64,000 nucleotides of DNA from a virus (IMGVR_UViG_3300012007_000010:64001-128000); one strand, 5' to 3'. Positions 22,226-39,032 are shown, numbered from the stretch's first letter. Notes: generated by a model from the sequence alone, not told the origin. Translations and numbers: made by a program.

Positions 22226-22520
22226 ATTGTGCCCAGGTAGCCCGTAAAACGGCTAAAGCGGTAAAACGCTTGCATGGGTGCAAGGTAGTATCGAGCGGAC
22301 TATAATGCAGTCGGTAGTAAACGAAAGGGAATCCCGCCACGACCTGACGTGATGTCAGATTAGCAGGAAAGGCCCGGGTAGGCACTACAGACGCCAGTCT
22401 GTAGGGACAAGTGTACATTGGAGTGAACAGAACTACCGCCAGCAATGGCGGACACTATAGCCCATAGAGCAAGTGAGCACTACAGGTGCAGGGGGATCGG
22501 CACCCCCCTATGGGCACAAT
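22226..22520 (+). ncRNA. Candidate structured ncRNA / leader (~295 nt)
   Basis: 10-bp closing stem ATTGTGCCCA/TGGGCACAAT enclosing at least eight short hairpins; non-coding. Confidence 0.5.
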
Positions 22521-22557
22521 GACGCTTTTGTCAGAATCATCAAAATCAATTAAAGTT

Positions 22558-23350: not shown

Positions 23351-23767
23351 ATGACAGAAAAAGCTATCATTGCACGGATGAGACAGATTCGTGAGAGCCG
23401 CACGTTTCATCACACCAAGACCGTGACCAAACGCCAGGTGGTGGAGTACGAGAGCACTATGGTGGTCCGGGGTGGTCACAAACTGAAGGGAGCCTATCGC
23501 ACCAGCCTCCAGGTGATGAAGACCTATGAACAGGAGGAGTGGGGCGGACTGGAGAGCCGCCGTCAGATGTTCGAGGCCGGTAAGGGTACGCGCTTCACTA
23601 AGCGCACCCATGTGAACACCGGAGCCCACTATACGAAGAGCGGCGGTGTGACCTCTACCAAGCGCCCGACGGCGCATGGCGAGGTGTGCAGCGTGGGCAG
23701 GGTTATCACGGTGAAGCGGTTCAGCAACAGCCGCCTGACGTGTGTATGCAAGAGCTTGATGTATTAA
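23351..23767 (+). CDS. Hypothetical basic protein
   Basis: 138 aa. Confidence 0.65.
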   Translation: MTEKAIIARMRQIRESRTFHHTKTVTKRQVVEYESTMVVRGGHKLKGAYRTSLQVMKTYEQEEWGGLESRRQMFEAGKGTRFTKRTHVNTGAHYTKSGGVTSTKRPTAHGEVCSVGRVITVKRFSNSRLTCVCKSLMY

Positions 23768-23945
23768 GCGAGAAATAACTATCGGTAGGTTGTAGCATGT
23801 CCGGGAGCATCGCCCACAGGCACAGGCACTTGAAAGCCCACTTCTATAGGACTATCGGGAGGTGGTGAGCGGAGTGTGCGAGCTAATTGGTGCGAGGATT
23901 ATCGGCAGGCGGCAGCGTGCGGACTAAATATCGGAGGACAGAACT

Positions 23946-24092
23946 ATGACAGCGAAAGAACGTATCGACGATCTGAAGAGTGTCTATGACATCCTGAGCA
24001 AGCAGGCGCAGGGCGAAGAAGTGACAGACGTGGAGTTTAACATAGCCCGCCTATTGCTTCACAGAGTGATAGGCGACATGGAGCAAACCTAA
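23946..24092 (+). CDS. Small hypothetical protein (48 aa)
   Basis: GGAGG-N8-ATG; MTAKERIDDL... Confidence 0.65.
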   Translation: MTAKERIDDLKSVYDILSKQAQGEEVTDVEFNIARLLLHRVIGDMEQT

Positions 24093-24094
24093 CT

Positions 24095-24274
24095 ATGGCA
24101 GAACAGGCACTAATCGTAAAGCTGCGCCCCAAGTTTCAGGAACTGCGGGACGCGAGAACGTATGACGAGGCAGGCGTGAAGCGCATCCTTTACAAGTTTG
24201 CACGCAGTATTGGGTGCAAGTGGAACGACGCGAAGTTGCAGGCGTTTATAGAGCAATGCTTCAACTACGACTGA
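24095..24274 (+). CDS. Small hypothetical protein (59 aa)
   Basis: MAEQALIVKL..., abuts previous stop. Confidence 0.6.
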   Translation: MAEQALIVKLRPKFQELRDARTYDEAGVKRILYKFARSIGCKWNDAKLQAFIEQCFNYD

Positions 24275-24357
24275 TGTGACTATCGGGGCGCACGGCTGCA
24301 GGGCTGTGCGCCCCGGTTGTATCTGGACGAGACGAAAAATTATCGGAGGACAAGACT

Positions 24358-24558
24358 ATGCAAGGATTTATCGGAATCTATGCCATCTATTTCCATTCGC
24401 GGAAACGTATGGCAGACACAAGTACCTGGGGCAAGGAGAAAATGCCAAGTGACTACACGGAGCAGGAAGTGGCTCAGGCCGCACGCCTCGCAGGCTGCGA
24501 GGGCTACGCTATCGTGAAAGACAATCAAGTGAAGACTATGAAGTGGTTTGTGAACTAA
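24358..24558 (+). CDS. Hypothetical protein
   Basis: GGAGG-N8-ATG. Confidence 0.65.
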   Translation: MQGFIGIYAIYFHSRKRMADTSTWGKEKMPSDYTEQEVAQAARLAGCEGYAIVKDNQVKTMKWFVN

Positions 24559-24580
24559 AACATATCTGGAGGACAAAATC

Positions 24581-24955
24581 ATGGAGAGAACAATGACTAT
24601 CGCACAGGCCAAGGCATTTATGGCCGATGTGCAGGCTATCGTGGATCGCGAAGACCACGGCTTTTGTGACTATCAGACCTGGCAGCACCGCCACCAGGGC
24701 GCAGTGTGGGGCGAGGGTATCAGCGTGGACGTGAGCCACGACGAGGACCACGGCTGCTATCACGAGACGGTGGGCATCCACTACTACGTGCAGCATCACG
24801 AGGGCGAGGGCATTGCCTGTCTGCGCATGGACTCGCGCGAGGGTGGCACGCTGGCTAACGACAAGCCTTTCTACGGCAGCGCACAGGAGGCCGCCGACTA
24901 TCTGCTGAAGGACTATCGCGAGTGCTTCGACGACGAGAACGTGGAGTGTGTCTAA
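24581..24955 (+). CDS. Hypothetical protein
   Basis: GGAGG-N8-ATG. Confidence 0.7.
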   Translation: MERTMTIAQAKAFMADVQAIVDREDHGFCDYQTWQHRHQGAVWGEGISVDVSHDEDHGCYHETVGIHYYVQHHEGEGIACLRMDSREGGTLANDKPFYGSAQEAADYLLKDYRECFDDENVECV

Positions 24956-24980
24956 TCAAAAAAAACTGGAGGACAAAGCA

Positions 24981-25331
24981 ATGAAGACTTTTGCAAAAAT
25001 GATTGTGGCCGCTATCGTGGCCGTGTTTATGGGCGTCATGGTTATTGCCTGCGACGCAAGTGATAGCCTGGTAATCGTGACTATGTTTGCTACCGCGATC
25101 GCGGCGAGTGGGCTGCTGGGTGTGTTCGATATGCCCGCTGAGCGCACGAAGCACGACTCTATCCGCCACAAGACAGGTAACTATAGCCAGGCAGCTATAT
25201 TCGTAGGCACGGCCTGTTTGTTCATGGGCACGCAGCAGGAGTGTGAGGAACTGGCTGACGACCTGCAGCACTATGCCCAGCAGGCCCGCGTGGAGATGCT
25301 GACGGGTGAGGAGACGTTTAACGTAATCTAA
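24981..25331 (+). CDS. Hypothetical membrane protein (two N-terminal TM helices)
   Basis: GGAGG-N8-ATG; hydrophobic N-terminus. Confidence 0.65.
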   Translation: MKTFAKMIVAAIVAVFMGVMVIACDASDSLVIVTMFATAIAASGLLGVFDMPAERTKHDSIRHKTGNYSQAAIFVGTACLFMGTQQECEELADDLQHYAQQARVEMLTGEETFNVI

Positions 25332-25346
25332 TGGGAGGACTGAGTT

Positions 25347-25676
25347 ATGAAGAAGACTATCGTATGCACGTGGGTTGCTATCTGTGTGGCCATGCTGGCC
25401 TTTAACTTCAACTACACGTATAAGGCCAGCCGCGAGGCTCGGCTGTGCTATCATCTGGCCCATGCTAATGTGCGCGACGGCTATATGGACGAGGCAGACA
25501 TGGCGAGGGTGAAGCGCTTCGTGAGCCGCCAACACTCTATCATGTTTCCCGGATCGGCGTATGAGCGCCTGCGCTGCTATCGCAACAACCTGCAGCGCCA
25601 GCGCCTGTCGGCTATCGACCGCGAGATGCGTGGCGCGGTCAATGGCGCGTATTGCGCCCTGAAAGTGAACAAGTAA
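25347..25676 (+). CDS. Hypothetical protein with N-terminal TM/signal
   Basis: GGAGG-N8-ATG. Confidence 0.65.
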   Translation: MKKTIVCTWVAICVAMLAFNFNYTYKASREARLCYHLAHANVRDGYMDEADMARVKRFVSRQHSIMFPGSAYERLRCYRNNLQRQRLSAIDREMRGAVNGAYCALKVNK

Positions 25677-25723
25677 ATCTATCAAAACATCAATAACACT
25701 CAAATCAAAAGGAGAACCGAGTT

Positions 25724-25930
25724 ATGAAGAGAATCAAGACTATGGCACGCGCCGCCAAGAAGAGCGCACGTATTGTTGCTATGACCGCTGCTGTTGCAGC
25801 AAGTATGAACACCAGCATGAGCCAGGCAGAGAAGGCCGCTATGGAGTGCGCCTTCGCCGACATGGTCGATGAATACGGGCATAAAGCCCTTATCATCGAC
25901 CTGCACCCGTTCCACGGGTTTATCGCGTAA
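25724..25930 (+). CDS. Hypothetical protein
   Basis: GGAGA-N8-ATG. Confidence 0.6.
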   Translation: MKRIKTMARAAKKSARIVAMTAAVAASMNTSMSQAEKAAMECAFADMVDEYGHKALIIDLHPFHGFIA

Positions 25931-25948
25931 AGGAGGGAGGACTGGAGT

Positions 25949-26266
25949 ATGACTATACATTGCCAGGAGCGTTTCGACGCTGCACGTGCCTATGCTAAGA
26001 GCGTGGGCCTGCTGGAGAATTTCGACGAGGTGTTCAACCGCCTGAAGTCGTGGGAGGAGCGCGACTATTGCCCCGTGGAGATACACATCGGGAGCGACTT
26101 CGAGAAGCACTCGTTCACGTTCCGCGAGGAGTATCTGCGCGAGGACCTGAAGGGCCGCGACGGCATCTGCGGCGGCATCATCTATCACGGCTGCCCGAAG
26201 GAGGGCTACCGCCCGGCCATGAGCACCCAAATGTGCCCGAGCTACGGATGGCAGATACACACATAA
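25949..26266 (+). CDS. DUF4120-like protein
   Basis: CQE.FD...YA..., GGIIYHG...GWQIHT terminus recalled from DUF4120. Confidence 0.7.
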   Translation: MTIHCQERFDAARAYAKSVGLLENFDEVFNRLKSWEERDYCPVEIHIGSDFEKHSFTFREEYLREDLKGRDGICGGIIYHGCPKEGYRPAMSTQMCPSYGWQIHT

Positions 26267-26287
26267 AAGCGAGTGAGGACTGTGACT

Positions 26288-26506
26288 ATGAAAGAGCCTA
26301 AGAACGTCTGCGAGATGAGCCGCAGGCAGATTAACGCCTATTTCCGCCAGCACGACGAGAGCCGACTATGGCCCGTCTGCGGGCGGTTCAATGCCACGGA
26401 GCGGGCCATCAGGCGCACAAGGCGCAACGGCTTCGGGGCAAACGGCGGCCTGGAGTACTATCTGGCCGTGGAGAGAGAGTTAAGTGAAATCGTAAATGCA
26501 GCGTAA
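26288..26506 (+). CDS. Hypothetical protein, ends -NAA
   Basis: TGAGG-N9-ATG. Confidence 0.6.
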   Translation: MKEPKNVCEMSRRQINAYFRQHDESRLWPVCGRFNATERAIRRTRRNGFGANGGLEYYLAVERELSEIVNAA

Positions 26507-26526
26507 CAATAAAATCAGAAACAAGT

Positions 26527-26649
26527 ATGGCAAAGACTGTATCAATCAACAAGACACGCAAGGCCATCGCCTATGCGTATAACGTGAGTATCGACAATAT
26601 TCCCGAGGAAATCGAGGATCAGTTTATCAACTATCGCAAAGCAGCATGA
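26527..26649 (+). CDS. Small hypothetical protein (40 aa), ends -RKAA
   Basis: Translated by hand: MAKTVSINKTRKAIAYAYNVSIDNIPEEIEDQFINYRKAA. Confidence 0.6.
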   Translation: MAKTVSINKTRKAIAYAYNVSIDNIPEEIEDQFINYRKAA

Positions 26650-26652
26650 CCT

Positions 26653-26922
26653 ATGGCAATAATGAGCGACGCGCAGATTGCTGCGCAGTATTCGGACTTC
26701 AAGATTCTGACACTATCGGTGGAGGAGAAGGACGACTATTTCACGGGGTGCGTAGAGATAGAGTTTCCTAATGCCGACAACATCACGTTCGACGGCTATA
26801 AGTGTGACAACTTTATCGGCTATGACAAGACTGGCAACCGTATTGCCTTCGACAACTGGTACCCAGACGAGGTGTACTACAATCTGTGTCAACGAATCAA
26901 CAAACAACGTAAAGCAGCGTGA
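26653..26922 (+). CDS. Hypothetical protein, ends -RKAA
   Basis: 89 aa. Confidence 0.7.
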   Translation: MAIMSDAQIAAQYSDFKILTLSVEEKDDYFTGCVEIEFPNADNITFDGYKCDNFIGYDKTGNRIAFDNWYPDEVYYNLCQRINKQRKAA

Positions 26923-26926
26923 GACT

Positions 26927-28036
26927 ATGGCAAACGAGATTAAGACAGCGAACGGAGTGGAGTACCGCTTCGTGGGCGAGTATGGCAGCATCCGCATGGA
27001 GAACGCCAAGACCATCAACCGCTATCTGGAACTGAAGAGCGACGAACCTGACACGGAGAAGTATGGCGTGTTCTTCGCCTTCGGCAACGACCAGTTTGAG
27101 GAGGGACGCAAACGCCTTATCGCCAAGGGCTACCTGAAGGAGGGCGAGAAAGTGTGCTCGGCTGGCATGGGGCTGTATGGCATCAGCGAGGAGATAGACC
27201 GCTATCTGGGTTTCTATAAGCAGCGTCACAAGCTGCAGGGGCAGGAGTGTAGCCCGCAGGAGGTGTACTTCTACGAGTGGAACAACCACGAGTGCATGGT
27301 TTCTATGGACGACGATCCTGCGCTGAAACTGATTATCGACATCTTCGGCAAAGAGGCGGCGCACAAGATTAAGCGCGTCTATCCCGGCACTCCTACCAAC
27401 ATACTGGCACCGCTGACGGAGCGCGACAAACATCTGGGCGAGTATGACCACACGCTGAGAATGCTGGGGCGCATGGAGTTCGACCTGCACGGGTTCTTCA
27501 GCGATGGCGACTGTCGCTATCAGCGGCCCGAAGACCTATGGGCGGGCTGCGTAAAAGGCGAGATACAGAAGACAAGGGAACTATACAATGCCCTGCCAGA
27601 CGACATTAAGGACGCTTCGCCTATGACGAAGCAGGAGATAGACGACTATGCCCGACGGCTGGAGCAGTGGGCTGACGCGGAGTTCTCGAAAGCGGAGTAC
27701 GACCCCGTGCCAACGACCCGGCGCGAAGACTTGCCGCAGGAGATTGAACTGCAGAACAAACTCTACTATCGTGACGACGACGGCAACTATCAGACACCGA
27801 CGCACGTATGGTTCTCGTGCGACTCGCGCCGCTGGCACCAGGACGAGCGCATGACGCACGGCAGGGCTATGACAGCCTATCTGGGCAAGAATGGTACGAC
27901 GCTGACGCCGGTACTAATCAGCTGCTCGACCGCGCTGGGCATGAAGCCCTATCGGAGGGACGACCTGTGCAACGTGTCGGCCAAGTATGAGTATAAGCCG
28001 CTGCACGGCAGACTGTATGGGTTCTATTACGAGTAA
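26927..28036 (+). CDS. Multidomain protein with LPD11-like central domain
   Basis: VFFAFGNDQFEE module, then MLGRMEFDL..FF..LWAG....Q..RELYNALP..MT..EID.Y resembling LPD11. Confidence 0.6.
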   Translation: MANEIKTANGVEYRFVGEYGSIRMENAKTINRYLELKSDEPDTEKYGVFFAFGNDQFEEGRKRLIAKGYLKEGEKVCSAGMGLYGISEEIDRYLGFYKQRHKLQGQECSPQEVYFYEWNNHECMVSMDDDPALKLIIDIFGKEAAHKIKRVYPGTPTNILAPLTERDKHLGEYDHTLRMLGRMEFDLHGFFSDGDCRYQRPEDLWAGCVKGEIQKTRELYNALPDDIKDASPMTKQEIDDYARRLEQWADAEFSKAEYDPVPTTRREDLPQEIELQNKLYYRDDDGNYQTPTHVWFSCDSRRWHQDERMTHGRAMTAYLGKNGTTLTPVLISCSTALGMKPYRRDDLCNVSAKYEYKPLHGRLYGFYYE

Positions 28037-28079
28037 ATAAATTCATTCATCAACAAATCAAAATTCGGAGGACGAAGTT

Positions 28080-28946
28080 ATGGCAAACGAGACAATGAAG
28101 GTGGCCGACCTTATCGGCAAGAGTATCAGCAACGGCGGCAACGCCAAGTACACAATCAACAGCATCGAGGGCGACAAGGTGAAGGTGACGTTCCAGATGG
28201 GCGATAGCGAGGGTAAGCCTATGACTATGGGTGTGGCCCAGGTGGAGAAGCTGTTGCAGGGTGGCTGGACTGTTCAGGGAAGTGAAGAGTGTAGAGTGAA
28301 GAGTGAAGAGTTTGCTACCGCACAGGAGGCTCCCAAGGGCGAAGAGCCGAAGGCTAAGACGGTGAAGATGGAGCCGGAGCCTAAGCCCAAGCAGGAACAG
28401 CCCGCCAAGCCCAAGGTGACGCTGAAGCGCAAGCAGCCGCAGGCGGAGACTGAAACCAAGGCGGGCAAGCTGGTGTATAGCACTTATACGAATGCGAAGG
28501 GCAAGACGTGCGCCAAAATCAGCGGATTCACTGAGACGGACGCTGCCTATCAGAAGGAGGCCGCTGCCAGCCTGCACGGCTCGGCTACCTACGAGAACAC
28601 GAAGCAGGGGCGCGTGCAGGGGCGCGTGAACTTCCTGCTATTCGGTCCCCGCTATGCGGGGGTGGCAAAGACCATCTGCCAGATGCTCAACGAGGGCAAG
28701 ACGGTGGCCGACTGTCAGGCGGTGGTGGATGCCGCCACCGAGGAGCGTATGGCAAAGCGCGAGGAGTGGAAGCAGAAGCGCGAGACCTACCGCCAGGAGC
28801 GCGAGGAACATGGGGCAGCCAACCCTGAAACCAAGGTAAATGGAAAGGCTTACTCATCGGCTGACGTGGCCGCTATCCTACAGAAAGTGATGGCGGGCGG
28901 AAAGTTGCCCAAGGACATCGAGGAAGCTATGATGAAGGCGGCATGA
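28080..28946 (+). CDS. Hypothetical protein, ends -MKAA
   Basis: 288 aa; in-frame heptamer repeat at 28281. Confidence 0.8.
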   Translation: MANETMKVADLIGKSISNGGNAKYTINSIEGDKVKVTFQMGDSEGKPMTMGVAQVEKLLQGGWTVQGSEECRVKSEEFATAQEAPKGEEPKAKTVKMEPEPKPKQEQPAKPKVTLKRKQPQAETETKAGKLVYSTYTNAKGKTCAKISGFTETDAAYQKEAAASLHGSATYENTKQGRVQGRVNFLLFGPRYAGVAKTICQMLNEGKTVADCQAVVDAATEERMAKREEWKQKRETYRQEREEHGAANPETKVNGKAYSSADVAAILQKVMAGGKLPKDIEEAMMKAA

Positions 28947-28979
28947 GGGAGAATTGAAGAATTGAAAAATTGAAGAGTC

Positions 28980-29474
28980 ATGGATAAGGATTTCTATAAA
29001 GACCTGACGGCTGCCCTGCGTAATTCGGGGGCAGCTGGTCAGGCTGCACCGAAAGGTGACAGCAATAAGAGTGCGCCTAAGACGAGCACCGCCAAGACTG
29101 CGCCCAAGACCGACACACCCAAGACGAAGGGCGGGGCGAAGGCTGCGAGTGAGCGAGGGCAGAACGGAACTCGTTCAGGTTCTGCTGAGCGTGAGCAGGC
29201 TCGACCGAAGGTCAAGTATGTCATCCCCAAGGAGTTTAAGCAGGCTATCGAGGACTATCTGACGGGTCGGCCAGACATGAGCGAGAAGCTGAAGCAGACG
29301 GGGAAGTCGATAGACAAATGCTGCGAGTATATCTATGGCCGCATGCTGAAGCGGGCGCAGAAGGAGCGCGGCGGGGCTACCACCGTAGGGATGTATGTGG
29401 CACCGGAGGAAATCTTCGGCATGGCCGTGCATTACTACGACGAGACCGACGAGAGTTTGAAGAAGGAGGCGTAG
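28980..29474 (+). CDS. pcfK: PcfK-like protein
   Basis: FKQAIEDYL...KSIDKCCEYI...EEIFGMAVHYYDE. Confidence 0.8.
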   Translation: MDKDFYKDLTAALRNSGAAGQAAPKGDSNKSAPKTSTAKTAPKTDTPKTKGGAKAASERGQNGTRSGSAEREQARPKVKYVIPKEFKQAIEDYLTGRPDMSEKLKQTGKSIDKCCEYIYGRMLKRAQKERGGATTVGMYVAPEEIFGMAVHYYDETDESLKKEA

Positions 29475-29478
29475 GACT

Positions 29479-30792
29479 ATGACACAGAAGGAGTTTGAAC
29501 GGCAGTGTATCGCCATCAACAACCGGCTGCGGGAGCCGGGCGAGGCGACCCAGAAGTGGATAGCCGCCAAGATATTTCCCGCAGGACTTATCAGTAGGTC
29601 ATATCGCCGCCGAAGGGTGCAGTATTGCTCGGAGTGCGGCAGCGAGATAGGCGTGCCGACACAGAAGGTGTGTCCCTGCTGTGGCGCACAGTGGACGGCA
29701 GAGCCGGAGGAGTGGGAGACGCGCCAGTCGGACTACCACATGGTAATGGAGGCCAAAGGCGATATCCAGGTGTGCCGCATCTACCGCGCCGACCGCTATA
29801 CGCACATCTACAAGAAGGTGCGTATGTATGTGGCCGAGGTGGAGCGCATTATGTATGCTCCGACGGGCGAGCGCAGGGTATTCGCCAAGTCGATACAGGG
29901 CATGTCTTATTACTACGACGCCTTCAGCTGGGGTTCGCCTATCACGCTGAAGCGCGAGGGCAAGGGGATGTCGTGGAGCGCCATGATGCGCTACAACCTG
30001 ACGGTGGCGGGCTATACTATCAAAAGCCTCACACAGCAGTGGCAGCACAAGGAGATACCGGCACTGCTGAACCGCTGGGAGGGCAACACCAGTGCGCTGC
30101 GGGTGATAGCCTATCCGTGGGGCGAGACGCTGGCGAAGACGGGGCAGGTGAAACTCTTCAGCTACTTTGTCAAAGAAAAGGAACTGCTGCCACGTGGAAT
30201 GGAACATGCGCTGAACATCTGCACCCGTAATCACTACGAGATAAGCGACCCGACGATGTGGCTCGACCATATCGCTATGCTCCGACAGTTTGGGCTCGAC
30301 ACCCACAACGCCCACTATGTGTGTCCCAAGGACCTACGGGCAGCGCACCAGCTGCTGGTTGACCGCCGCAACCGTGAGCGAGTGAAGCGAGAGGCAGAAC
30401 AGCGTGCCCGCCGCTATGCTGAGCGGCTGCAACAGATGGGGCAGGAGAAGGCCGACTATCAGCAGCAGTGGGGCAAGATGCTATCACTGCAGTTGACGGC
30501 AAAGAACCTGGACATACAGCCGCTGCACACAGTGGATGAATTTGCCGCAGAAGGTGCCGCCATGCACCACTGCGTGTTCGAGAATGGCTACTACAAGTCG
30601 AAGACAAACCTTATCCTCTCGGCCAAAGACGATGAGGGGCATCGGTTGGCCACTATTGAGTACAGCATAGGCACGGGCAGCATCAAACAGTGCCGTGCGG
30701 CCTGCAATGCCGTGCCAGAGAGGGATGCGGAGATACGGACGCTTATCACCAGTCACCGGCAGGACTTCGAGCGGCTGATGAAGGCGGCGTGA
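29479..30792 (+). CDS. pcfJ: PcfJ-like protein, ends -MKAA
   Basis: N-terminal CxxC/CxxC ribbon, C-terminal EFAAEGAAMHHCV domain; follows pcfK. Confidence 0.85.
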   Translation: MTQKEFERQCIAINNRLREPGEATQKWIAAKIFPAGLISRSYRRRRVQYCSECGSEIGVPTQKVCPCCGAQWTAEPEEWETRQSDYHMVMEAKGDIQVCRIYRADRYTHIYKKVRMYVAEVERIMYAPTGERRVFAKSIQGMSYYYDAFSWGSPITLKREGKGMSWSAMMRYNLTVAGYTIKSLTQQWQHKEIPALLNRWEGNTSALRVIAYPWGETLAKTGQVKLFSYFVKEKELLPRGMEHALNICTRNHYEISDPTMWLDHIAMLRQFGLDTHNAHYVCPKDLRAAHQLLVDRRNRERVKREAEQRARRYAERLQQMGQEKADYQQQWGKMLSLQLTAKNLDIQPLHTVDEFAAEGAAMHHCVFENGYYKSKTNLILSAKDDEGHRLATIEYSIGTGSIKQCRAACNAVPERDAEIRTLITSHRQDFERLMKAA

Positions 30793-30823
30793 GTTGAGAA
30801 TTGAAATTTAAACATTCAAAGTT

Positions 30824-31897
30824 ATGGCAACAAAAAGAAACAACGGAGGCCAGCAGAAGAAGCGCGGCTTCCAGATGAACGATCGGCAAAAAGAGAAGTA
30901 TGCCGAGTTATTTACAAGTGCGCTCGACCAGATGGAGGACGCACAGTGGACGAAGCCGTGGGTGGCACCCCGGCACATGGAACCCGCGAACTATCAACGC
31001 AGGAACAAGCCCTATCGAGGGATGAACAACTTCATCCTGACCCTGCTATGCGCTATCAAGGGGTGGGAGACACCGCTGTTCCTCACCTTCGACCAGCTGA
31101 CGGACATGGGGCTATCGCTCAATATGATGACGGACGAGGACGGGAATGTTATCCTGAAGGACAACGGCATGCCGCTGTTCGAGGGTAGCTTCCCAGTGGT
31201 GAAGATGCTGCCTCACTTCTATAAGGACGGCAAGCGGCTCACACCAAAGGAGTATGACGAGCTGGACGAGGAAGAGCAGGAGAAGTGCCGCAAGTTCTTC
31301 AGCATGAGAGCCTGGCCTGAGTTTAACCTATCGCAGACGGACTTCAAGGCGAAGTTCCCGGAGAAGTGGGAGGAGCTGACCCGTCTGCCGGAGCACGACT
31401 ATCAGGCTGGTACCCGCGATGAAGTGCTGGAGCGGATGATCATGCAGGGCGAGTGGCGCTGCGCTATCAAGTTCACGGGACACGAGAGCTACTACAGCCC
31501 CTCGAAGGACATCATCTGCCTGCCGGAGCGCAGCCACTTCCTCGGCGACGAGCTGTTCTATTCGACGGCTATTCACGAGATGGCGCACTCTACGGCGGGC
31601 GAACTGAAGCGCGACATGGGCGGTGGAGGCTTCGGCAGCGAGGGCTATGCCCGTGAGGAGTTCTGCGCCGAGCTGACGGCGGCGTGCGTCTGCTCTATGC
31701 TGGGCATCGGGCGACTGCTCGACGAGCAGCACATTGCCTACGTCAACAGCTGGCGCAAGGCTATCCGCGACGACAAGGACTTCATTCCGCAGGTCATCGA
31801 CCATGTGCAGCGGGCCACAAATTATATCCTGCGCCGCTACGACGAGGTGAACAAGGCGATGCACCCGCTGATGCTGCCTATGCCGATGGCGGCGTGA
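30824..31897 (+). CDS. ardC: ArdC-like antirestriction ssDNA-binding/zincin protein, ends -MAA
   Basis: WTKPW, YRGMN, FLTFDQ; IHEMAHST zincin; YAREEFCAEL. Confidence 0.9.
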   Translation: MATKRNNGGQQKKRGFQMNDRQKEKYAELFTSALDQMEDAQWTKPWVAPRHMEPANYQRRNKPYRGMNNFILTLLCAIKGWETPLFLTFDQLTDMGLSLNMMTDEDGNVILKDNGMPLFEGSFPVVKMLPHFYKDGKRLTPKEYDELDEEEQEKCRKFFSMRAWPEFNLSQTDFKAKFPEKWEELTRLPEHDYQAGTRDEVLERMIMQGEWRCAIKFTGHESYYSPSKDIICLPERSHFLGDELFYSTAIHEMAHSTAGELKRDMGGGGFGSEGYAREEFCAELTAACVCSMLGIGRLLDEQHIAYVNSWRKAIRDDKDFIPQVIDHVQRATNYILRRYDEVNKAMHPLMLPMPMAA

Positions 31898-31969
31898 AGC
31901 CCCACCCCCGCCCCTCCCCGATTGGAGAGGGGAGTATATAGACTATTCAAAGAAAAAATTCAAACGACT

Positions 31970-32173
31970 ATGACAAAAGAAGAAATTGCAAGACAGAAAG
32001 TAATTGAGAATATCACAGGTATGCTCCAGACCACGCCGTTCACCTTCGAGTTCAAGGTGGTGAAGAAGCCCAAGGGCATCAAGATTATCCACGAAGTGAC
32101 GCAGGAGCAGATGGACGCGCTGACCCTTCAGATGGTGGAGCGCAGTAGCAGTATCGAGAAAGTGGAGGAGTGA
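31970..32173 (+). CDS. Hypothetical protein
   Basis: ACGACTATG start. Confidence 0.65.
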   Translation: MTKEEIARQKVIENITGMLQTTPFTFEFKVVKKPKGIKIIHEVTQEQMDALTLQMVERSSSIEKVEE

Positions 32174-32188
32174 AAAACGATTACGACT

Positions 32189-32707
32189 ATGGCAACATTA
32201 GCAGACGAGCTGCGCAGTGAGATTATGCAGCAGTGCAAGGAGAATACAAAGAGCTTCCTTACAAGACGGGAGCATGTTATCAACGAGATAAGGAGCGGCA
32301 AACGTGAGGTGTTCTTTACATTGAGACGTCACTATTGCAATTACGAGGACGAACGTAAAGCAGAGCGTGAAGTGGAAAAGAATGTCGCCCATCCTGAAGG
32401 CTATCGCCTGTCGAGCTCAGGATGTGTGGACAACGTGGGCATCACCTACCGCAACGGGAAGCACTATGCGCAATTCATTAAAGGCAACAACTGGTACGAC
32501 AAGTCGGACTGTCAGTATGTGGACGTTGACGATACGCCGTATTGGAGAAAGGACTATCTGTATAACCGTGAGGAACTGCTCGATCTGGGCGGTTATTTCG
32601 AGCGTGAGGGCTTCCGGGTGTTCGTCAGCCTGTGCAGCGACTACGACGCACGATATCCTTATACCTACAACGCATTTAATATTGCTGACTTGATAGTGAC
32701 ACTCTAA
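32189..32707 (+). CDS. Hypothetical protein
   Basis: ACGACTATG start. Confidence 0.7.
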   Translation: MATLADELRSEIMQQCKENTKSFLTRREHVINEIRSGKREVFFTLRRHYCNYEDERKAEREVEKNVAHPEGYRLSSSGCVDNVGITYRNGKHYAQFIKGNNWYDKSDCQYVDVDDTPYWRKDYLYNREELLDLGGYFEREGFRVFVSLCSDYDARYPYTYNAFNIADLIVTL

Positions 32708-32720
32708 CAGCGTAACAACT

Positions 32721-33086
32721 ATGGCTAACGACTATCAGACATACGGTGAGCGGCGCATGATTGACGGTGTCGCTCACTATAGCCGAGATGAGCGCAGCGA
32801 CGGGCTGACCTACGGCTACGTGTACTGGAACGAGCGGGCCTTCAGGGAGCAGCCCGACGAGGTGTGCTACATTCCGGAGCACGCCTTCGACGACGTGCAG
32901 CCGGTGAGGGTGGACGGCACGGACTACTATCCCGCCGAAGAAGTGGAAGGCTATACGAGGCGCGACCTGGAGCGGATGCTGGAGGGCGAGACCGACGAGG
33001 ACGGCGACGCTATCACGGTGGAGGACTTCTTTCAGTCGCTCTTCTGGTGCTACCCCGAAACGAGACTGATGGAACTGACGTATTAA
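32721..33086 (+). CDS. Hypothetical acidic protein
   Basis: 121 aa. Confidence 0.7.
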   Translation: MANDYQTYGERRMIDGVAHYSRDERSDGLTYGYVYWNERAFREQPDEVCYIPEHAFDDVQPVRVDGTDYYPAEEVEGYTRRDLERMLEGETDEDGDAITVEDFFQSLFWCYPETRLMELTY

Positions 33087-33108
33087 CAAACAGAAAACGA
33101 AACGAACT

Positions 33109-33609
33109 ATGGCAGTAAGAAACATGGACGCTATTGAGCGTCATGGCAACATGATTGCCGAGCAGAAGGCCAACGAGCGCAAGATGCGTGAGGAGAGTTT
33201 CTGGCAGAGAGTGAACACTATCAGGGCGTGCCACGATGATGCGGTGGACTTCATCGACACGGTGGATGCGCTGGCTAAGAACGGACTGTGCGGCAGGTTC
33301 GACGAGTGGATGAAGCAGCAGAACGTGACGTTTGAAGGGTACAGGGGATTGATACGAGTATGCTGCCTGTCTGGGCGCAAGGAGTCGGCACTGGTCGGCT
33401 ACTATCCGAAGAAAGACGAGGTGCATTTCGGATGGAACGGCTACGGTATGGGCGAATCATACGACGTGAAGTCGCCGGGACAGATGGCCGACTATGTGAT
33501 ACACACCCGTATGGTGGCCGACCGTCACTACGACGAGGGCCTGACCAAGCTGGCCGCACGGCTGCAGCCGTTCCTGACGGCATTCTTTGAGTGGGTGAAA
33601 ACGATTTAA
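33109..33609 (+). CDS. Hypothetical protein
   Basis: 166 aa. Confidence 0.7.
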   Translation: MAVRNMDAIERHGNMIAEQKANERKMREESFWQRVNTIRACHDDAVDFIDTVDALAKNGLCGRFDEWMKQQNVTFEGYRGLIRVCCLSGRKESALVGYYPKKDEVHFGWNGYGMGESYDVKSPGQMADYVIHTRMVADRHYDEGLTKLAARLQPFLTAFFEWVKTI

Positions 33610-33621
33610 ACGATTACGACT

Positions 33622-34011
33622 ATGGGACAATGTTATTCTGTGGAAATCAAAGCGAGATTCACTGACGAGGAGGGCGCAAAGAAAGCGCTGCAGGCCAAAC
33701 TTGACAGGCATGAAGAGGAGCGTGTCTGCTACAACCTGGACCACTTCAAGGAACTTGGCATAGGCACTGACAACCTGCACGACCTGATTGGCATATTCTT
33801 CGGCGGATGGAAGGGGAGACTCGAAACTGCACCTGCCGACAAAACGTGGGAGTTTGCCGACTTCGATGCCTCCTATGGCTGGGAGAGTGTTATGATGGAA
33901 GCCTTCGAGGTAATCGCGCCCTACTTGTCTGACGACTCTGAAATTATGATCTGGCCCGATTCCGGCTGCGACCACGGAACGGTCAGGAACGGGAAATGCA
34001 AATGGGCATAA
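33622..34011 (+). CDS. Hypothetical protein
   Basis: ACGACTATG start. Confidence 0.7.
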   Translation: MGQCYSVEIKARFTDEEGAKKALQAKLDRHEEERVCYNLDHFKELGIGTDNLHDLIGIFFGGWKGRLETAPADKTWEFADFDASYGWESVMMEAFEVIAPYLSDDSEIMIWPDSGCDHGTVRNGKCKWA

Positions 34012-34029
34012 CTAAAACGAATAACGACT

Positions 34030-34419
34030 ATGAAGCATAAAGATTTCTATGCAGAAATCATGAATCTGCACAAAAACATCGTGGCCGAGACGGTGGCCCT
34101 GATGGTGGAGCATGGTGTGAAGGAGGTTGAACTGCTGGGTAGCGACTGCGACCATGCCTACATAGTTGGCTATCCGGGCGACGGTGCCGACGTGATGGAG
34201 ATGGAGGTGAACAAGGTGTACTACCGCGACTGCCAGCTGATGCTCGACGTTATCCTCGACATCGACACCGAGGAACTGGCCGAGCAGAGCGAGAACGGCG
34301 ACATCGGCGATGCCTACCAGTGCTGGCGTGCCAACGACTTCGAGCACTTCAAGCCCTGCGGCGGTATCGAGATGGTGTATGAGAGCGTATGGCAGGTGTT
34401 GAACAAATCAAACAAGTAA
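34030..34419 (+). CDS. Hypothetical acidic protein
   Basis: ACGACTATG start. Confidence 0.7.
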   Translation: MKHKDFYAEIMNLHKNIVAETVALMVEHGVKEVELLGSDCDHAYIVGYPGDGADVMEMEVNKVYYRDCQLMLDVILDIDTEELAEQSENGDIGDAYQCWRANDFEHFKPCGGIEMVYESVWQVLNKSNK

Positions 34420-34424
34420 TGACT

Positions 34425-34580
34425 ATGGCAGAAGAAGTAACTACAGAGAAGAAGTACAAGAACTGGAACGTGTGGCGTGACGGCAAGATGAAGAAAATAA
34501 TAACCGTGCCGATGACTACCGGACAGGCGCTGAAGCATTTCAAGGCTGACGCGGTGGAAGGATGTGAGTTGAACGAGTAA
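34425..34580 (+). CDS. Small hypothetical protein
   Basis: GACTATG start after previous stop. Confidence 0.55.
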   Translation: MAEEVTTEKKYKNWNVWRDGKMKKIITVPMTTGQALKHFKADAVEGCELNE

Positions 34581-34590
34581 AACAAGAACT

Positions 34591-35070
34591 ATGAATTTCA
34601 GAAACGACTGGGAGACCACCCTTGAAATGGCTAACAAGGACTTGAAAAAATATGGGATGGAAATCCGAGTGTTGAACGACCCAGACGAGGGCATCTATTC
34701 GTGCGACATACACGACGGCTTTGAGTGGGTGAATTTCGCCGACAACTACTATGAGAATGAGCTGGGCGAGCTGGTGAACGATGCCTGGACACACGCCAGA
34801 GCCAAGGCCAAGGCGAAGGAGCCGGTGAAGGTGTGGGTGGTTACGTTCATCAACGACCATGAGTGGGAACTACCTAACGTGTCGGTCAACGTGTTCGGCA
34901 CGAAGGAGGAAGCCCGTCAGTGTTTGGACGATGAGTGGCAGACGCTGACCACGGAGGGCGGCGAGTGGCAGGAGGACGTGAGCCGTAAAGGCGACGACGA
35001 TTTCATGTTTGTGGACAGTTGCGAGAACCGCGTCATCGGCGAGATCAAGGAGAAGGAAGTGAAACTTTAG
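34591..35070 (+). CDS. Hypothetical acidic protein
   Basis: 159 aa. Confidence 0.7.
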   Translation: MNFRNDWETTLEMANKDLKKYGMEIRVLNDPDEGIYSCDIHDGFEWVNFADNYYENELGELVNDAWTHARAKAKAKEPVKVWVVTFINDHEWELPNVSVNVFGTKEEARQCLDDEWQTLTTEGGEWQEDVSRKGDDDFMFVDSCENRVIGEIKEKEVKL

Positions 35071-35081
35071 CAACAAGAACT

Positions 35082-35474
35082 ATGGGAAAGAAATTCAGGT
35101 GCGAGGCACCTATTGACAACAAGAACCTGATGGAGGACGGGTTTGAGGACGATGTGTTCCAAGACCTCTATGCAGCGAGCGACCACCGCAAGCGTGGTAT
35201 GCGCCACCTGATAGGCCATCACATGGAGTGGGGCAGTGAGGTGGGTGGTGCTATCATCGAAGCCAAGTGGCACTACGGCGAGCACATGGTGGTCATCAAC
35301 GTGCTGGCCGCTGCACCGACAGAGGACTTCGAGGAGGTTCGCAAGGAGGTATTTGCCGCCGCTACCGACACGTTCAAGGAGTGGCAGTGCGACGACAACC
35401 CCGGTCTCGTGGTAGAGACCGAGGTGAGGGACGGTTCTCTGATTGTAAGTTTTTATTTTGAGACGGACGATTAA
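35082..35474 (+). CDS. Hypothetical acidic protein
   Basis: Start ACTATGGGAAAGAAATT. Confidence 0.7.
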   Translation: MGKKFRCEAPIDNKNLMEDGFEDDVFQDLYAASDHRKRGMRHLIGHHMEWGSEVGGAIIEAKWHYGEHMVVINVLAAAPTEDFEEVRKEVFAAATDTFKEWQCDDNPGLVVETEVRDGSLIVSFYFETDD

Positions 35475-35486
35475 AACAGAGAGACT

Positions 35487-35933
35487 ATGGGAAAGAAATT
35501 TAACGTGGATGTGGATATCACCATGTCGTGCCGCATCGAGGTGGATGCGGAGAGTGAGGAACAGGCGAAGACTATCGTGGGCAACTGGATAGGCGATGAC
35601 CCGTGGCAGTACGTCAGGGACGGGCACTACATCAAGCATGAGTTTGAGGAGGTGAGCGAGTGCAGCGACGACCCGAAGGACGAGGTGCTGGAGCAGTGGT
35701 CGATGACGTTCAAGGAGGCGGTGCTCTATGCTCGTGACCAGATGGACGAGGACGACCTGGCTATCCTGCGGGCTCAGGTGAGCAAGAACTACAAGCAGCA
35801 CAATGCACCGGCGACGGACATTGACGACTCGAAGGTTATCGACCTGCTGGAAGAGTACGGCGAGGATCACGACCTGCCGGAAGGTTGGTATCTGGACGAG
35901 TACGATGCCGACGACGTGATGCTGGTGCTGTAA
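35487..35933 (+). CDS. Hypothetical acidic protein
   Basis: Start ACTATGGGAAAGAAATT. Confidence 0.7.
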   Translation: MGKKFNVDVDITMSCRIEVDAESEEQAKTIVGNWIGDDPWQYVRDGHYIKHEFEEVSECSDDPKDEVLEQWSMTFKEAVLYARDQMDEDDLAILRAQVSKNYKQHNAPATDIDDSKVIDLLEEYGEDHDLPEGWYLDEYDADDVMLVL

Positions 35934-36160
35934 CCTATCAGCCCCGCACGGATTATCCTACCCTTCGATGGGATGCGGGGCACGAAGACTCGGGCGGCAA
36001 ATCCGTCTGAGCGTAACGTGAAAAAGCGTTTTCATAACTTGTAATGCCCAAGCCGGGTGCTCCGGCTGGGCTAAATTGATTTTGAATGTTGACTGTGCAA
36101 CTGGGCTGTGAAGTTCGGTTGCATTTTTCTACGATTATTGACCTCAAAACATATACGACT

Positions 36161-36358
36161 ATGACGAAGAAAGCTATCGACCGGGCCTTGGACGAAGGAC
36201 AGGTGGTGGTGCTCAGGCACGACCCTATGAGCCGTCTGTGCCGAGACCTCTTCGGAAATCTGGTGGTGGTGTCGCTACGCCACGACGAAGCGGAGCCCAT
36301 ACGGCTGGCTACCGCAAGCGACAGGAGAGCAGCAACAATATACGAACCAAAACAATAG
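36161..36358 (+). CDS. Hypothetical protein
   Basis: ACGACTATG start. Confidence 0.6.
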   Translation: MTKKAIDRALDEGQVVVLRHDPMSRLCRDLFGNLVVVSLRHDEAEPIRLATASDRRAATIYEPKQ

Positions 36359-36369
36359 GAGGACAGACT

Positions 36370-37317
36370 ATGGCATACAAATTTTCAGAACTGAACAAAC
36401 TGGGCGACAAGTTTATGGCGGTGTTCGGCATCGGCTTCAAGCCGTTCTACGACGGACTGATGTCGGTTGTCTCTAAGCAGCTGTGCATCGACATCATGAA
36501 GTTCGACGAGTGGCTGCACGAGAAGCACGGAGACTATGAGGATGCAGGTCAGAGCATGGATGACTGTATCCGTGAGCACTATGGCGACGAAGGAGCGAGG
36601 CTGATAAACGAAGTGATTGGCATGGACGGCGATGATGTTCCGCCTGAACCTGAGCCGGAGGAGCCGAAGAGAAAGCCCAAGGCCAAGGCGAAAGGCAAGG
36701 CTAAGACGAAGCCCGTGGATGATCAGAGAGCATTTAACAACAGGATTGCACTGTCGCTGCTGCGGCAGTGTGCATGGATGTGGGAACACTGCATGCGGAG
36801 CAACAACGAGGGCTCGTTCACGATGAAGGACGTGCGGATGGGTTTGCTCCATCTTGACCGCTATAAGAGTCCTGCGGGGGTTATCATGTTCGACCTTTGC
36901 AGCTGCGAATACTGGGATGTGTTCGACCGACAGGACATCGAGGGCGTGAGCTACGATGCAAAGAATGAGAGGATGAGTATGTTCCTGTCCCACGACCCGC
37001 AGGGCGACCAGACGCTGGGATTCGGATGCAGTTTCGAGGCGAAGGATGTTTTTGACGTGACGGATCAGGTGTGTAGCCCGAGCCTGTTGCAGAAGGTGCG
37101 CTTCTGCTATAAGGACGGCGAGCGGTGGACGGACATCCCCGACATCGACGTGAAGCCTGTGAAGAATAAGGCGACTACGAAAAAAGCAAGACCCAAGGCG
37201 AAGGCTGCCAAGGAGGCGAGGGCTGCGGAGATACCGCAGCAGACGGAACAGGCGGAGCCGACGTTTGCGGAGCGGCTGCGAGAGGCGCTGCTGAAGCACT
37301 ATAAGGCAGCGGCATGA
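36370..37317 (+). CDS. Hypothetical two-domain protein, ends -KAAA
   Basis: GGAGG-N7-ATG. Confidence 0.75.
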   Translation: MAYKFSELNKLGDKFMAVFGIGFKPFYDGLMSVVSKQLCIDIMKFDEWLHEKHGDYEDAGQSMDDCIREHYGDEGARLINEVIGMDGDDVPPEPEPEEPKRKPKAKAKGKAKTKPVDDQRAFNNRIALSLLRQCAWMWEHCMRSNNEGSFTMKDVRMGLLHLDRYKSPAGVIMFDLCSCEYWDVFDRQDIEGVSYDAKNERMSMFLSHDPQGDQTLGFGCSFEAKDVFDVTDQVCSPSLLQKVRFCYKDGERWTDIPDIDVKPVKNKATTKKARPKAKAAKEARAAEIPQQTEQAEPTFAERLREALLKHYKAAA

Positions 37318-37331
37318 GTCTTAAATGAAGA

Positions 37332-37574
37332 ATGAATAAAACAGTAACGACTATGGATTACGGCTATAAGGAAACGGTGCGCTACGGCGTTAGCGCATAC
37401 TCCTTCCTGATACTGGGACAGGAGATGGACGGGGCCTCGTTTGTGGAGGTCATCAAGAAACGCTACGATATGAGCAACCCACGGACAAAGGCTGTCGTGG
37501 GCGCTCTTGAAAGACATCTTGTAAGAATCAAGGTAAGGCGTGACGGAAAGACGGAGTATCAAGTAAAACCCTAA
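37332..37574 (+). CDS. Hypothetical protein
   Basis: 80 aa. Confidence 0.6.
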   Translation: MNKTVTTMDYGYKETVRYGVSAYSFLILGQEMDGASFVEVIKKRYDMSNPRTKAVVGALERHLVRIKVRRDGKTEYQVKP

Positions 37575-37579
37575 CGACT

Positions 37580-38998
37580 ATGAACTATTTCGAGCATTGT
37601 ATGACCCACGAGCAGCTGGAGCAGGAGCACCGGCGGCTTGTAATAAAGATGCACCCTGACAGGAATCCTAACGACCCGGAGGCTACGGCTAAGTTCCAGG
37701 AGATGCAGCAGCAGTATGAGGAACGCAAAGCCGAGCTGAACGGCGACTATACCAAGTCGGCAAGAGGGCGCGAGCGGAGAGAGCGGGAACGTCGGGAGCG
37801 TGAGGAACGGGAACGCAAGGAGCGCGAACGAAACCGGCTGGCAGAGGTGCTGGAGCAGGCACGGCTGAACAAGCAGAAACGGCACACGGAGCTGAAGAAG
37901 GGCGACTTCGTGTATGCTCAGATGGTGCCGAATGTGGGCGGCACGCCTAACGGCTGGGCTGACATGACAGTAGAGGACATCCTGCGGGTGTCACTGAAGG
38001 ACGACATGAACGGCGAGACGGTGGTGATGGTGGAAGAGATTATCGAGTGCCAGGACTACGACATGATGAACTGTTCGTTGAGCAAGCTGATGGGCAGCAC
38101 GGAGACAGGGCGTATCTATGGCGGCTGGGAGACGATACAGAGTGCCGACCCCGCTAACGGCATCCGCAAGGCAAAGCGCGTGGCGAAGGTGGTGATGTTC
38201 CGCTCGACAGACTACTGCGCCTTCGGCAATCCGCAGGGCGACCCCTTTGTCAGCGACTACTATATGCGTCCCGACTTCGGTACGATGTACTCCGACCACC
38301 TGCACCGCATCTACCAGCGTATGCGGCAGGAGGAAGAAAATAAGGCTCGCATCGAGGCGGAGCGCAAGGCTCGCATCGAGGCGGAGCAAAGGCCGCTGAT
38401 AGACGAGTGGGTGCCGAAGCTGATTACTATCAGCCGGGGACTGACCGACGCGGAGCAGCAGACGGTGGCAGTCTCTAACCTGAAGACGGTGCTGAAGAGG
38501 AAGTTCCCTGGGGTGACGTTCACCATCAAGACCAACCGCCACGGCGAGACATCGGTGACATGGGAGGACGGGCCGACGGTGACGGAGGTGATAACGGTAG
38601 CCGACCTGTTCAACGACTGGCTACAGCTGACGGAGCCTACACCCTGGCAGGAGCGCTTCGGACGGGTGACGGTCAACGCTGCCGACTTCAACCGCAAGAT
38701 GAACGTGCTGACGAAGGCTCGCATCCTGCAGCAGTTGGGCGGCGTGACGGAGGCGTTCAGCCAGGGCGACATCGACGACGAGGTGACAGTCAGTGACGAA
38801 GACTGGACAATGCTGCACCTGATGGTGGGTGTGAGTGTCGGCGACAAGGACGCTACGCTGTGCCGCTGCCACGATCAGGCTGACGGCACACGGCGGGTGC
38901 ATATCGGCACGGCAGTCCGCTATGTGTTTGAGCATACAAGCTATGTGAAGGCGAAGGTCACACGGAAATCACAGAAAGCACAGAAGCAGGCGGCGTGA
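37580..38998 (+). CDS. J-domain protein with LPD29-like C-terminal domain, ends -QAA
   Basis: KMHPDRNP J-domain; NLKTVLKRKFPGVTF...VTWEDGPT resembles LPD29. Confidence 0.75.
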   Translation: MNYFEHCMTHEQLEQEHRRLVIKMHPDRNPNDPEATAKFQEMQQQYEERKAELNGDYTKSARGRERRERERREREERERKERERNRLAEVLEQARLNKQKRHTELKKGDFVYAQMVPNVGGTPNGWADMTVEDILRVSLKDDMNGETVVMVEEIIECQDYDMMNCSLSKLMGSTETGRIYGGWETIQSADPANGIRKAKRVAKVVMFRSTDYCAFGNPQGDPFVSDYYMRPDFGTMYSDHLHRIYQRMRQEEENKARIEAERKARIEAEQRPLIDEWVPKLITISRGLTDAEQQTVAVSNLKTVLKRKFPGVTFTIKTNRHGETSVTWEDGPTVTEVITVADLFNDWLQLTEPTPWQERFGRVTVNAADFNRKMNVLTKARILQQLGGVTEAFSQGDIDDEVTVSDEDWTMLHLMVGVSVGDKDATLCRCHDQADGTRRVHIGTAVRYVFEHTSYVKAKVTRKSQKAQKQAA

Positions 38999-39032
38999 TT
39001 GGATTTTATAACGACAACGAATTAAACGAACT

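Follow-up and report, generated by a model that had tools for sequence, protein, structure and literature searches.

In this study, we analysed a 64,000-nucleotide (nt) window of viral DNA, which comprises bases 64001-128000 of the 129,669-bp IMG/VR virus record IMGVR_UViG_3300012007_000010, rated complete, and identified a set of precisely spaced Shine-Dalgarno (SD) sequences at its gene starts. The source is a large uncultured rumen phage of about 130 kb with a Bacteroidales host. We estimate a probability of roughly 60% that these sites are genuine SD elements, which would copy the rare SD-type start of the host and serve ribosomes whose anti-SD is exposed. This reading draws on the motif and its spacing, enrichment, clustering and conservation, its likeness to host sites, its link to short intergenic gaps, and its position behind a host-type promoter, all of which were observed directly.

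All eleven sites that a preliminary description of the window had listed are present (Table 1). Exactly 8 nt separate ATG from GGAGG at 23933, 24345, 24568, 24968, 25334, 25936 and 28067, and from GGAGA at 25711. The spacer is 9 nt for TGAGG at 26274 and for GGAGG at 29465, and 7 nt for GGAGG at 36358. The extended form GGAGGAC, described as usual, occurs at 8 of the 11 sites. GGAGG-N8-ATG is found 10 times in the window, compared with 1.9 +/- 1.4 times in shuffled sequences, and GGAGGAC-N6-ATG seven times, compared with 0.13 expected and a maximum of two in 100 shuffles. All seven copies of the latter are on the + strand between 23933 and 28082. The whole record has 37 copies of GGAGGAC, and most of the others lie deep inside genes, many of them reading as Glu-Asp codons.

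Genes of the whole record (155) were called with our own simple codon-usage caller and a first-ATG rule. A pairing-energy cut-off of -7 kcal/mol proved too lenient, since 6% of random ATGs pass it, and GGAGG plus spacing was used instead. Genome-wide, GGAGG lies 7-9 nt ahead of ATG in 14 of the 155 genes, compared with 1.1% of random ATGs; the spacer is 8 nt in 10 of these 14 genes and 7-9 nt in all, and AC follows GGAGG in 10. SD sites are always on the strand of their own gene and are found on both strands. GGAGG precedes 8 of the 14 genes in the block 23946-29479 and 6 of 141 genes elsewhere (Fisher p = 1e-6, for a region picked post hoc). When the variants GGAGAAC, TGAGGAC and GGAGGCG are counted, 10 of these 14 consecutive genes have an SD, compared with 9/141 elsewhere. 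The 16S tail of a Prevotella-like relative is GGAAUACCUCCUUUCU; the GGAGG core is complementary to its CCUCC, and contiguous pairing with the tail extends over 5-8 bp. Anti-SD duplex energies are -9 to -13 kcal/mol for the SD sites and near zero for the remaining genes, which have A-rich leaders as first described. The start assignments hold: each ATG is the first of its frame and lies just past the stop codon of the preceding gene. In addition, a DUF4120 match starts at residue 4 of its SD-led protein, and the protein encoded at 28080 is conserved from Met1 in six genomes. A scan of IMG/VR for the exact 16-nt junction GGAGGACTGAGCGATG gave at least 119 matches, mostly single and from all kinds of sample, and was uninformative because SD-using phages have such junctions in common by chance.

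The motif is kept in five related IMG/VR phages, in which the 288-aa protein encoded at 28080 is 60-78% identical. GGAGG is present at the starts of 9-14% of the genes in five related genomes, compared with 1.1-1.9% of random ATGs, and the modal spacer is again 8 nt. The complete relatives have 17-20 GGAGG-led genes each, and these are clustered. Ahead of the 28080 orthologue, TTCGGAGGAC(A/G)AAGTTATG does not vary among the six genomes, in contrast to the diverging sequence further upstream, and the motif is also kept at some further orthologues. The relatives have a second SD module, dominated by GGAGGACTGA-N3-ATG. The SD of the core gene 3086-5005 arose by a 3-nt gain of GGA relative to its 99%-identical orthologue in the relative G001.

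In four relatives (L006:5653-6900, L009:3194-4474, and G002 and G003), the start of the 28080 orthologue is internal to a longer frame with 119-150 extra codons upstream. This internal start is the fully conserved GGAGGAC-N6-ATG, and in L006 and L009 the upstream start of the longer frame has a GGAGGAC SD of its own. Two nested products could be made from this frame.

Start sites of phage and host were compared, as the preliminary description had proposed. A 365-kb Prevotella assembly analysed with the same pipeline has GGAGG at 3 of 289 starts (1.0%), all of them GGAGGAC at 8-9 nt, compared with 14/155 in the phage. Together with the 1.7% of genes reported to have strong SDs in Bacteroidia (Jha et al. 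2021, PMC7797042), this value bears out the statement that the host phylum is generally SD-free. All six GGAGGAC-N6-ATG sites inspected in the Prevotella genome are gene starts, including those of rpmA (bL27), rplF (uL6) and rpsR (bS18). Among 23 Prevotella-like genomes, rpmA has GGAGG 8 nt upstream in 13 and GGAGA in one, and the next base is nearly always A. The SD-led genes of the host lineage (rpmA, rplF and rpsR) and the phage sites have the same SD form and spacing. Jha et al. (PMC7797042) found a strong SD on rpsR in 66%, rplI in 83%, rplF in 54% and rpmA in 33%, and on rplE as well. The cultured Bacteroidota phages B40-8, B124-14, crAss001 and FCV-1 have one or two GGAGG-N8-ATG each, which is the control level, compared with 15 in the present record.

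In phage and host alike, the SDs are confined to internal cistrons, and most lie no more than 30 nt past the stop codon of the gene before. In four complete genomes, SD-led genes have a median distance of 3 nt from the same-strand gene ahead of them, compared with 46 nt for all other genes (p = 9e-12). GGAGG is present at 11-39% of starts after gaps of up to 10 nt, at 10-17% after 11-30 nt, and at 0-7% after longer gaps; in the relatives, 29-39% of the junctions with gaps of up to 10 nt have it. None of the 47 first genes of a strand run has GGAGG. The same restriction of SDs to internal cistrons is seen in the Prevotella sample, and the SD-led ribosomal-protein genes of the host are likewise internal cistrons. 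This placement points to reading by ribosomes arriving from the upstream gene. Short junctions with an SD include those of PcfJ (gap of 4 nt), the HNH gene (ATGA overlap), 3086-5005 (gap of 3 nt) and most SD sites of the relatives. The early-block set of SD-led genes that was first described is real, but SD use is limited neither to this block nor to this genome and also tracks short gaps, two points that the preliminary description missed.

The SD block lies at the promoter-proximal end of an early operon, driven by a host-type promoter and encoding anti-defence-type genes. The promoter at 21906-21936 is followed by two SD-free genes (22510-23238 and 23351-23767), the SD-led run 23946-26506, an LPD11/DUF7659 protein, the 288-aa gene, PcfK, PcfJ and ArdC, and then by about ten genes with AACGACT-type leaders up to 36095, with more past 36095. 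There is no comparably strong + strand terminator candidate between 21645 and 36095. The word 'early' in the preliminary description holds only in this sense, i.e., downstream of a host-type promoter and with anti-defence-type genes. Judging from this layout, SD-type and SD-free leaders are probably present on one early host-polymerase transcript, and the difference between them would therefore concern translation and not transcription. Pfam and PHROGs searches with the small SD-led proteins identified only DUF4120. Look-ups of the two SD-free genes heading the operon yielded nothing of use, and a score of 0.81 to a T4 RegA-type cluster does not exceed chance.

A Bacteroidota host, most likely a rumen Bacteroidales of Prevotella type, is indicated by several independent lines of evidence. 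The window contains six Bacteroidota-type promoters (TTTG-N17-23-TAnnTTTG), compared with 0.43 expected, and their + strand copies have TATCTTTGCA in common. The SD-free phage leaders are A-rich, with A at -3, C at -2 and T at -1, and this profile matches that of the 289 Prevotella-assembly genes. When the PcfJ protein was compared with plasmids, all 38 matching records were from Bacteroides, Parabacteroides, Phocaeicola, Prevotella or Myroides. The head protease gave 94 matches among phage records, of which 87 are Flavobacterium, two Porphyromonas, three cyanobacterial and two unnamed phages. DUF4120, carried by one SD-led gene according to Pfam, is of Bacteroidota lineage. A 69-aa protein encoded at 62128-62337 on the - strand matches the bL12 dimerisation domain (PF16320, 29.6 bits) with its first 36 residues, followed by an unrelated basic tail; the nearest matches of this N-terminal domain are in Bacteroidota genomes, one of them a Prevotella assembly. 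Promoters, leader profile, PcfJ, DUF4120, head protease and bL12 domain all agree with the original assignment to a phage of a Bacteroidota host. The window products include a head-maturation protease, a 4187-aa tape-measure-like protein, a tail protein, a reverse transcriptase, an endolysin, ParA, a DnaC-like loader, a single-stranded DNA-binding protein and several DNA methyltransferases. A megablast search with 20 kb against cultured phages gave no matches. An interpretation of the block as the leading region of a conjugative element in a Bacillota host was dropped after the virion genes and Bacteroidota affinities were found.

A ParA-like partition protein (11738-12604), a DarB-like methylase-helicase (42168-47339) and an LPD11 polyvalent-protein domain (26771-28036), together with a c4 RNA, suggest a P1-like phage-plasmid lifestyle; the large phage possibly has a plasmid-like prophage state. 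A phage tRNA-Met (17834-17906) has the hallmarks of an initiator, namely a mismatched C1:A72 pair and an anticodon stem closed by three G-C pairs, and a TAACTTTG -7-like box lies just ahead of it (17786-17793).

We propose that the phage clade would place SDs at a minority of cistrons, internal and closely spaced, in operons behind host-type promoters and with many accessory and anti-defence genes among them. The host model copied may be the few internal ribosomal-protein cistrons with SDs (rpsR, rplF and rpmA). We infer both the SD/anti-SD pairing and the ribosome pool that reads the sites. In Bacteroidia, the anti-SD is held by bS21, bS18 and bS6, and the phage SD would pair with the 16S CCUCC only when the 3' tail is not sequestered by these proteins. 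Candidate readers are 30S subunits short of bS21, bS18 or bS6, or ribosomes directly after their termination on the upstream gene, and the SD may give reinitiation or privileged loading where a long A-rich leader is absent or short. In Flavobacterium johnsoniae, the SD-led rpsU is translated by ribosomes without bS21, which normally make up more than 10% of the total, and an analogue based on bS18 has been proposed for Bacteroidales. Among the three readings offered in the preliminary description, an SD-competent ribosome state remains the best, with indirect support from the rare host SDs on ribosomal-protein genes, which are GGAGGA(C) with 8-nt spacing.

Several points weigh against this reading. 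Orthologues alternate between SD and SD-free leaders, and the SD is therefore not indispensable. The near-fixed AC after GGAGG cannot pair with the 16S tail, the gene starts depend on our own simple gene caller, and the host identity is itself inferred from sequence. The SD sites of the window block have gaps of 15-179 nt; with gaps of 179 and 83 nt at the first two SD genes, coupling to the upstream gene is insufficient and there must be de novo loading as well. Reporter output in Prevotella bryantii was the same whether an SD was added or removed (Accetto and Avgustin 2011, PMC3155529), so that a plain enhancer role in uninfected cells is unlikely. The F. johnsoniae rpsU needs a helix of 9-13 bp, compared with 5-8 bp at the phage sites.

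A more elaborate version, which we consider conceivable but doubtful, is a phage translational programme on a separate ribosome pool, with the SD cistrons read only by ribosomes whose anti-SD is exposed. The pool could consist of host 30S subunits without bS18, bS6 or bS21, for which almost no host mRNA competes. Alternatively, the first SD-free genes of the operon (22510-23238 and 23351-23767) might strip ribosomes of bS18, bS6 or bS21. The choice between an SD and an A-rich leader would then act as a timing or state switch in translation, and the phage initiator tRNA and the bL12-domain protein could belong to the same takeover.

The SD might also act as a throttle, that is, as a weak start on ribosomes with an occluded anti-SD, which limits potentially toxic early or accessory proteins or ties their output to the state of ribosome assembly, and not as a means of gaining translation. 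Wild-type F. johnsoniae ribosomes are slow to initiate on the SD-led rpsU mRNA, the SD-led genes are mostly small and accessory and include some membrane proteins, and low constitutive expression would matter for a phage with plasmid-like and immunity features such as ParA and a c4-type RNA. However, the SD leaders retain the A-rich flanks and the A at -3 of good local start sites, and strict 8-nt spacing with conservation is more typical of a positive signal. We regard a throttle as unlikely.

The chances are poorer still that GGAGGAC is recognised by an RNA-binding repressor, or by an endonuclease, of the T4 RegB/RegA kind, in which case it would serve timed shut-off and its SD look would be secondary. 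Such a mark would account for the conservation of the AC extension despite its lack of pairing with the 16S tail, and the motif does label a coherent gene set behind a host-type promoter. However, the bS21 and RegB-like genes that the preliminary description suggested seeking in the rest of the genome were not found: profile searches of the whole record gave no matches to bS21 or bS18, and none at E <= 1 to RegB (PF10715). The same GGAGGA(C) and spacing occur on ribosomal-protein genes of the host, where no phage is involved, the motif follows junction spacing and not the early block alone, and the loops of the c4-2 RNA are not complementary to GGAGGAC. The proposal of a RegB-like cleavage mark is thus not borne out.

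It is very unlikely that the host is not SD-blind, being a non-Bacteroidota bacterium or a lineage with an accessible anti-SD in which these sites would be ordinary. The indirect identification of the host and the variable presence of the rpmA SD among Prevotella-like genomes leave some room for this view. Against it, about 90% of the phage genes are SD-free and match the Prevotella start-site profile, Bacteroidota-type promoters are present, structural as well as accessory genes have Bacteroidota relatives, and the sampled Prevotella genome has only 1% GGAGG SDs.

Least probable of all, at long odds, is that the SDs are neutral relics from SD-using donors such as Bacillota conjugative elements: the PcfJ, PcfK and ArdC families do occur in Bacillota elements too, and SD-led genes are enriched among accessory genes (56% unique to one genome, compared with 33% of the others, p = 3e-4), but the motif is invariant in six genomes while its flanks diverge, its flavour is that of the host, one SD arose de novo in a core gene, and the nearest PcfJ relatives are all from Bacteroidota and have SD-free copies, as PcfK and PcfJ of a Prevotella nigrescens element and a Phocaeicola plasmid illustrate. 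SD-led and other genes do not differ in GC content, GC content at third codon positions or codon adaptation, and both PcfJ and DUF4120 belong to Bacteroidota lineages, which rules out that an SD-using donor supplied these genes recently. On the same grounds, and because the relatives keep the motif, the non-Bacteroidota donor suggested in the preliminary description is rejected.

Table 1. Coordinates of the SD sites and associated features in the window.
Feature	Position	Strand	Remark
Strong terminator-like hairpin (16 pairs and T-run) closing the preceding unit	21600-21645	+	Next good + candidate at 36095-36124
Bacteroidota-type promoter (TTTG, 19 nt, TATCTTTG) heading the operon with the SD block	21906-21936	+	
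GGAGGAC-N6-ATG, start of 48-aa gene 23946-24092	23933-23948	+	
GGAGGAC-N6-ATG, start of 66-aa gene 24358-24558	24345-24360	+	
GGAGGAC-N6-ATG, start of 124-aa gene 24581-24955	24568-24583	+	
GGAGGAC-N6-ATG, start of 116-aa gene 24981-25331	24968-24983	+	G002 orthologue likewise GGAGGAC
GGAGGAC-N6-ATG, start of 109-aa gene 25347-25676	25334-25349	+	
GGAGAAC-N6-ATG, start of 68-aa gene 25724-25930	25711-25726	+	Orthologues: G002 GGAGGAC, G004 without SD
GGAGGAC-N6-ATG, start of DUF4120 gene 25949-26266	25936-25951	+	
TGAGGAC-N7-ATG, start of 72-aa gene 26288-26506	26274-26290	+	
GGAGGAC-N6-ATG, start of 288-aa gene 28080-28946	28067-28082	+	
GGAGGCG with 9-nt spacing, start of PcfJ gene 29479-30792	29465-29481	+	SD within 3' end of PcfK gene (28980-29474)
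GGAGGAC-N5-ATG, start of 315-aa gene 36370-37317	36358-36372	+	
GGAGGTG SD at ATGA overlap, start of HNH gene 40432-40830	40420-40434	+	
GGAGGAA-N6-ATG, start of 639-aa gene 3086-5005	5003-5018	-	
Contrast set of about 17 genes with SD-free (T)AACGACT-ATG-GCA leaders	30824-39299	+	Genes to 35933 precede the 36095 terminator candidate

Many SD-free genes have very regular leaders of the form (T)AACGACT-ATG-GCA or GAGCGAT-ATG. The junction TAA-CGACT-ATG-GCA (stop codon, 5 nt and start codon, with A at -3 and G at +4) is found at well over a dozen genes in 30824-39364 and 47460-50345, and ACGACT-ATG-GCA likewise occurs on a Phocaeicola plasmid gene (L011:4286). A third leader type, AAAGCTACAC followed by 3-5 nt and ATG, which may be a promoter or a start-site element, precedes ParA and a few other genes (11738, 14128, about 52.3 kb before the window, and the G002 and G004 orthologues). 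Between the 21600 terminator and the 21906 promoter, the - strand has four tandem copies of the 13-nt TACCTTTGCACCC (21779-21821), each with a -7-like TAnnTTTG box pointing away from the early operon. Six + strand copies of (A/T)TATCGG lie within 580 nt (23779-24350); three of them, then followed by nAGG, are in the 180-nt leader of the first SD gene, and SDs are fused to two copies (TATCGGAGGAC). The predicted fold of the 196-nt leader 23765-23960 is no more stable than those of shuffled sequences (z = -0.57).

The region 39904-40830 is a P1 immI-like module with a host-type promoter (39904-39935) upstream of a c4-2 RNA (40033-40110; Rfam RF02944, 48.9 bits), one loop of which (CAAGUAGAA) is complementary to TTCTACTTG at 39946-39954 and 40124-40132. 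The latter copy lies directly ahead of the ATG of a 99-aa gene (40136-40435), and the HNH gene is next, with an ATGA overlap. A paralogous small gene, whose product starts with MSNNMKKM, is located about 770 nt before the window. Masking of GGAGGAC by this c4-2 RNA was considered and rejected, as one of its loops pairs with TTCTACTTG and none is complementary to the motif.

Bacteroidia ribosomes are a textbook case in which an anti-SD is carried yet unusable. To our knowledge, the natural SD-led mRNAs of Bacteroidia studied so far are only rpsU and a handful of ribosomal-protein genes. The presence of 14-20 conserved, correctly spaced SDs per phage genome, of host flavour and confined to internal cistrons, suggests that there is a state of the Bacteroidales ribosome in which the hidden 16S tail can be read. 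This state could be post-termination, or it could belong to subunits without bS18 or bS21. The clade offers many independent natural test sequences for when these ribosomes read an SD. For gut and rumen viromes, these sites bear on gene calling and on the use of ribosome-binding-site motifs to predict hosts; they also bear on how expression cassettes for Bacteroides and Prevotella are designed and on phage competition for ribosomes. SDs and their rare use in Bacteroidia were known already; their systematic and conserved use in a phage clade, in the flavour of the host and tied to internal cistrons, is absent from the papers searched. A literature search revealed no published SD-led gene sets in Bacteroidota phages, and according to a preprint Cellulophaga phages do not have this feature.

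T4 RegB cleaves GGAG within the SDs of early genes. The present phage resembles T4 in having a set of early genes marked by GGAG-containing SDs and differs from it in that it has no RegB gene and its host uses the same motif. Phage-encoded bS21 in Bacteroidia phages (Mizuno et al. 2019, PMC6375957; Chen et al. 2022, PMC9723584) is likewise a phage strategy directed at the platform of the 30S subunit and the anti-SD region in Bacteroidia. The difference is that bS21 and bS18 genes are absent here, and the mRNAs are adapted instead of the ribosome. Termination-reinitiation coupling (Huber et al. 2019, PMC6728339) also involves an SD in or just past the 3' end of the upstream gene, with overlaps or very short gaps. 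The phage clade has such SDs at 29-39% of gaps of up to 10 nt, whereas the gaps of 15-179 nt in the window block indicate that coupling is only part of the explanation. Huber et al. reported that Bacteroidetes stand alone among the groups in using the SD neither for reinitiation nor for de novo initiation.

A further parallel is provided by the Bacteroidia genes for ribosomal proteins that have an SD (Jha et al. 2021, PMC7797042; McNutt et al. 2023, PMC9976891; Naeem et al. 2026, PMC13000453; PMC13000457), i.e., rpsU in Flavobacteriales and rpsR, rplI, rplF, rplE and rpmA in Bacteroidales. Both are rare strong SDs in an anti-SD-hiding lineage, have the GGAGGA(C) and 8-nt spacing seen in Prevotella, and are internal, soon after an upstream stop codon. 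Unlike the rpsU/rpsR-type circuit, the phage sites form a helix of 5-8 bp and not 9-13 bp, and their products are DUF4120, PcfJ and small proteins, not the platform proteins that occlude the anti-SD. The phage genes are accessory and anti-defence genes, so no autoregulatory loop results. The frequency of use differs as well: SDs precede about 1% of the host genes, whereas the phage has 14-20 sites per 130 kb.

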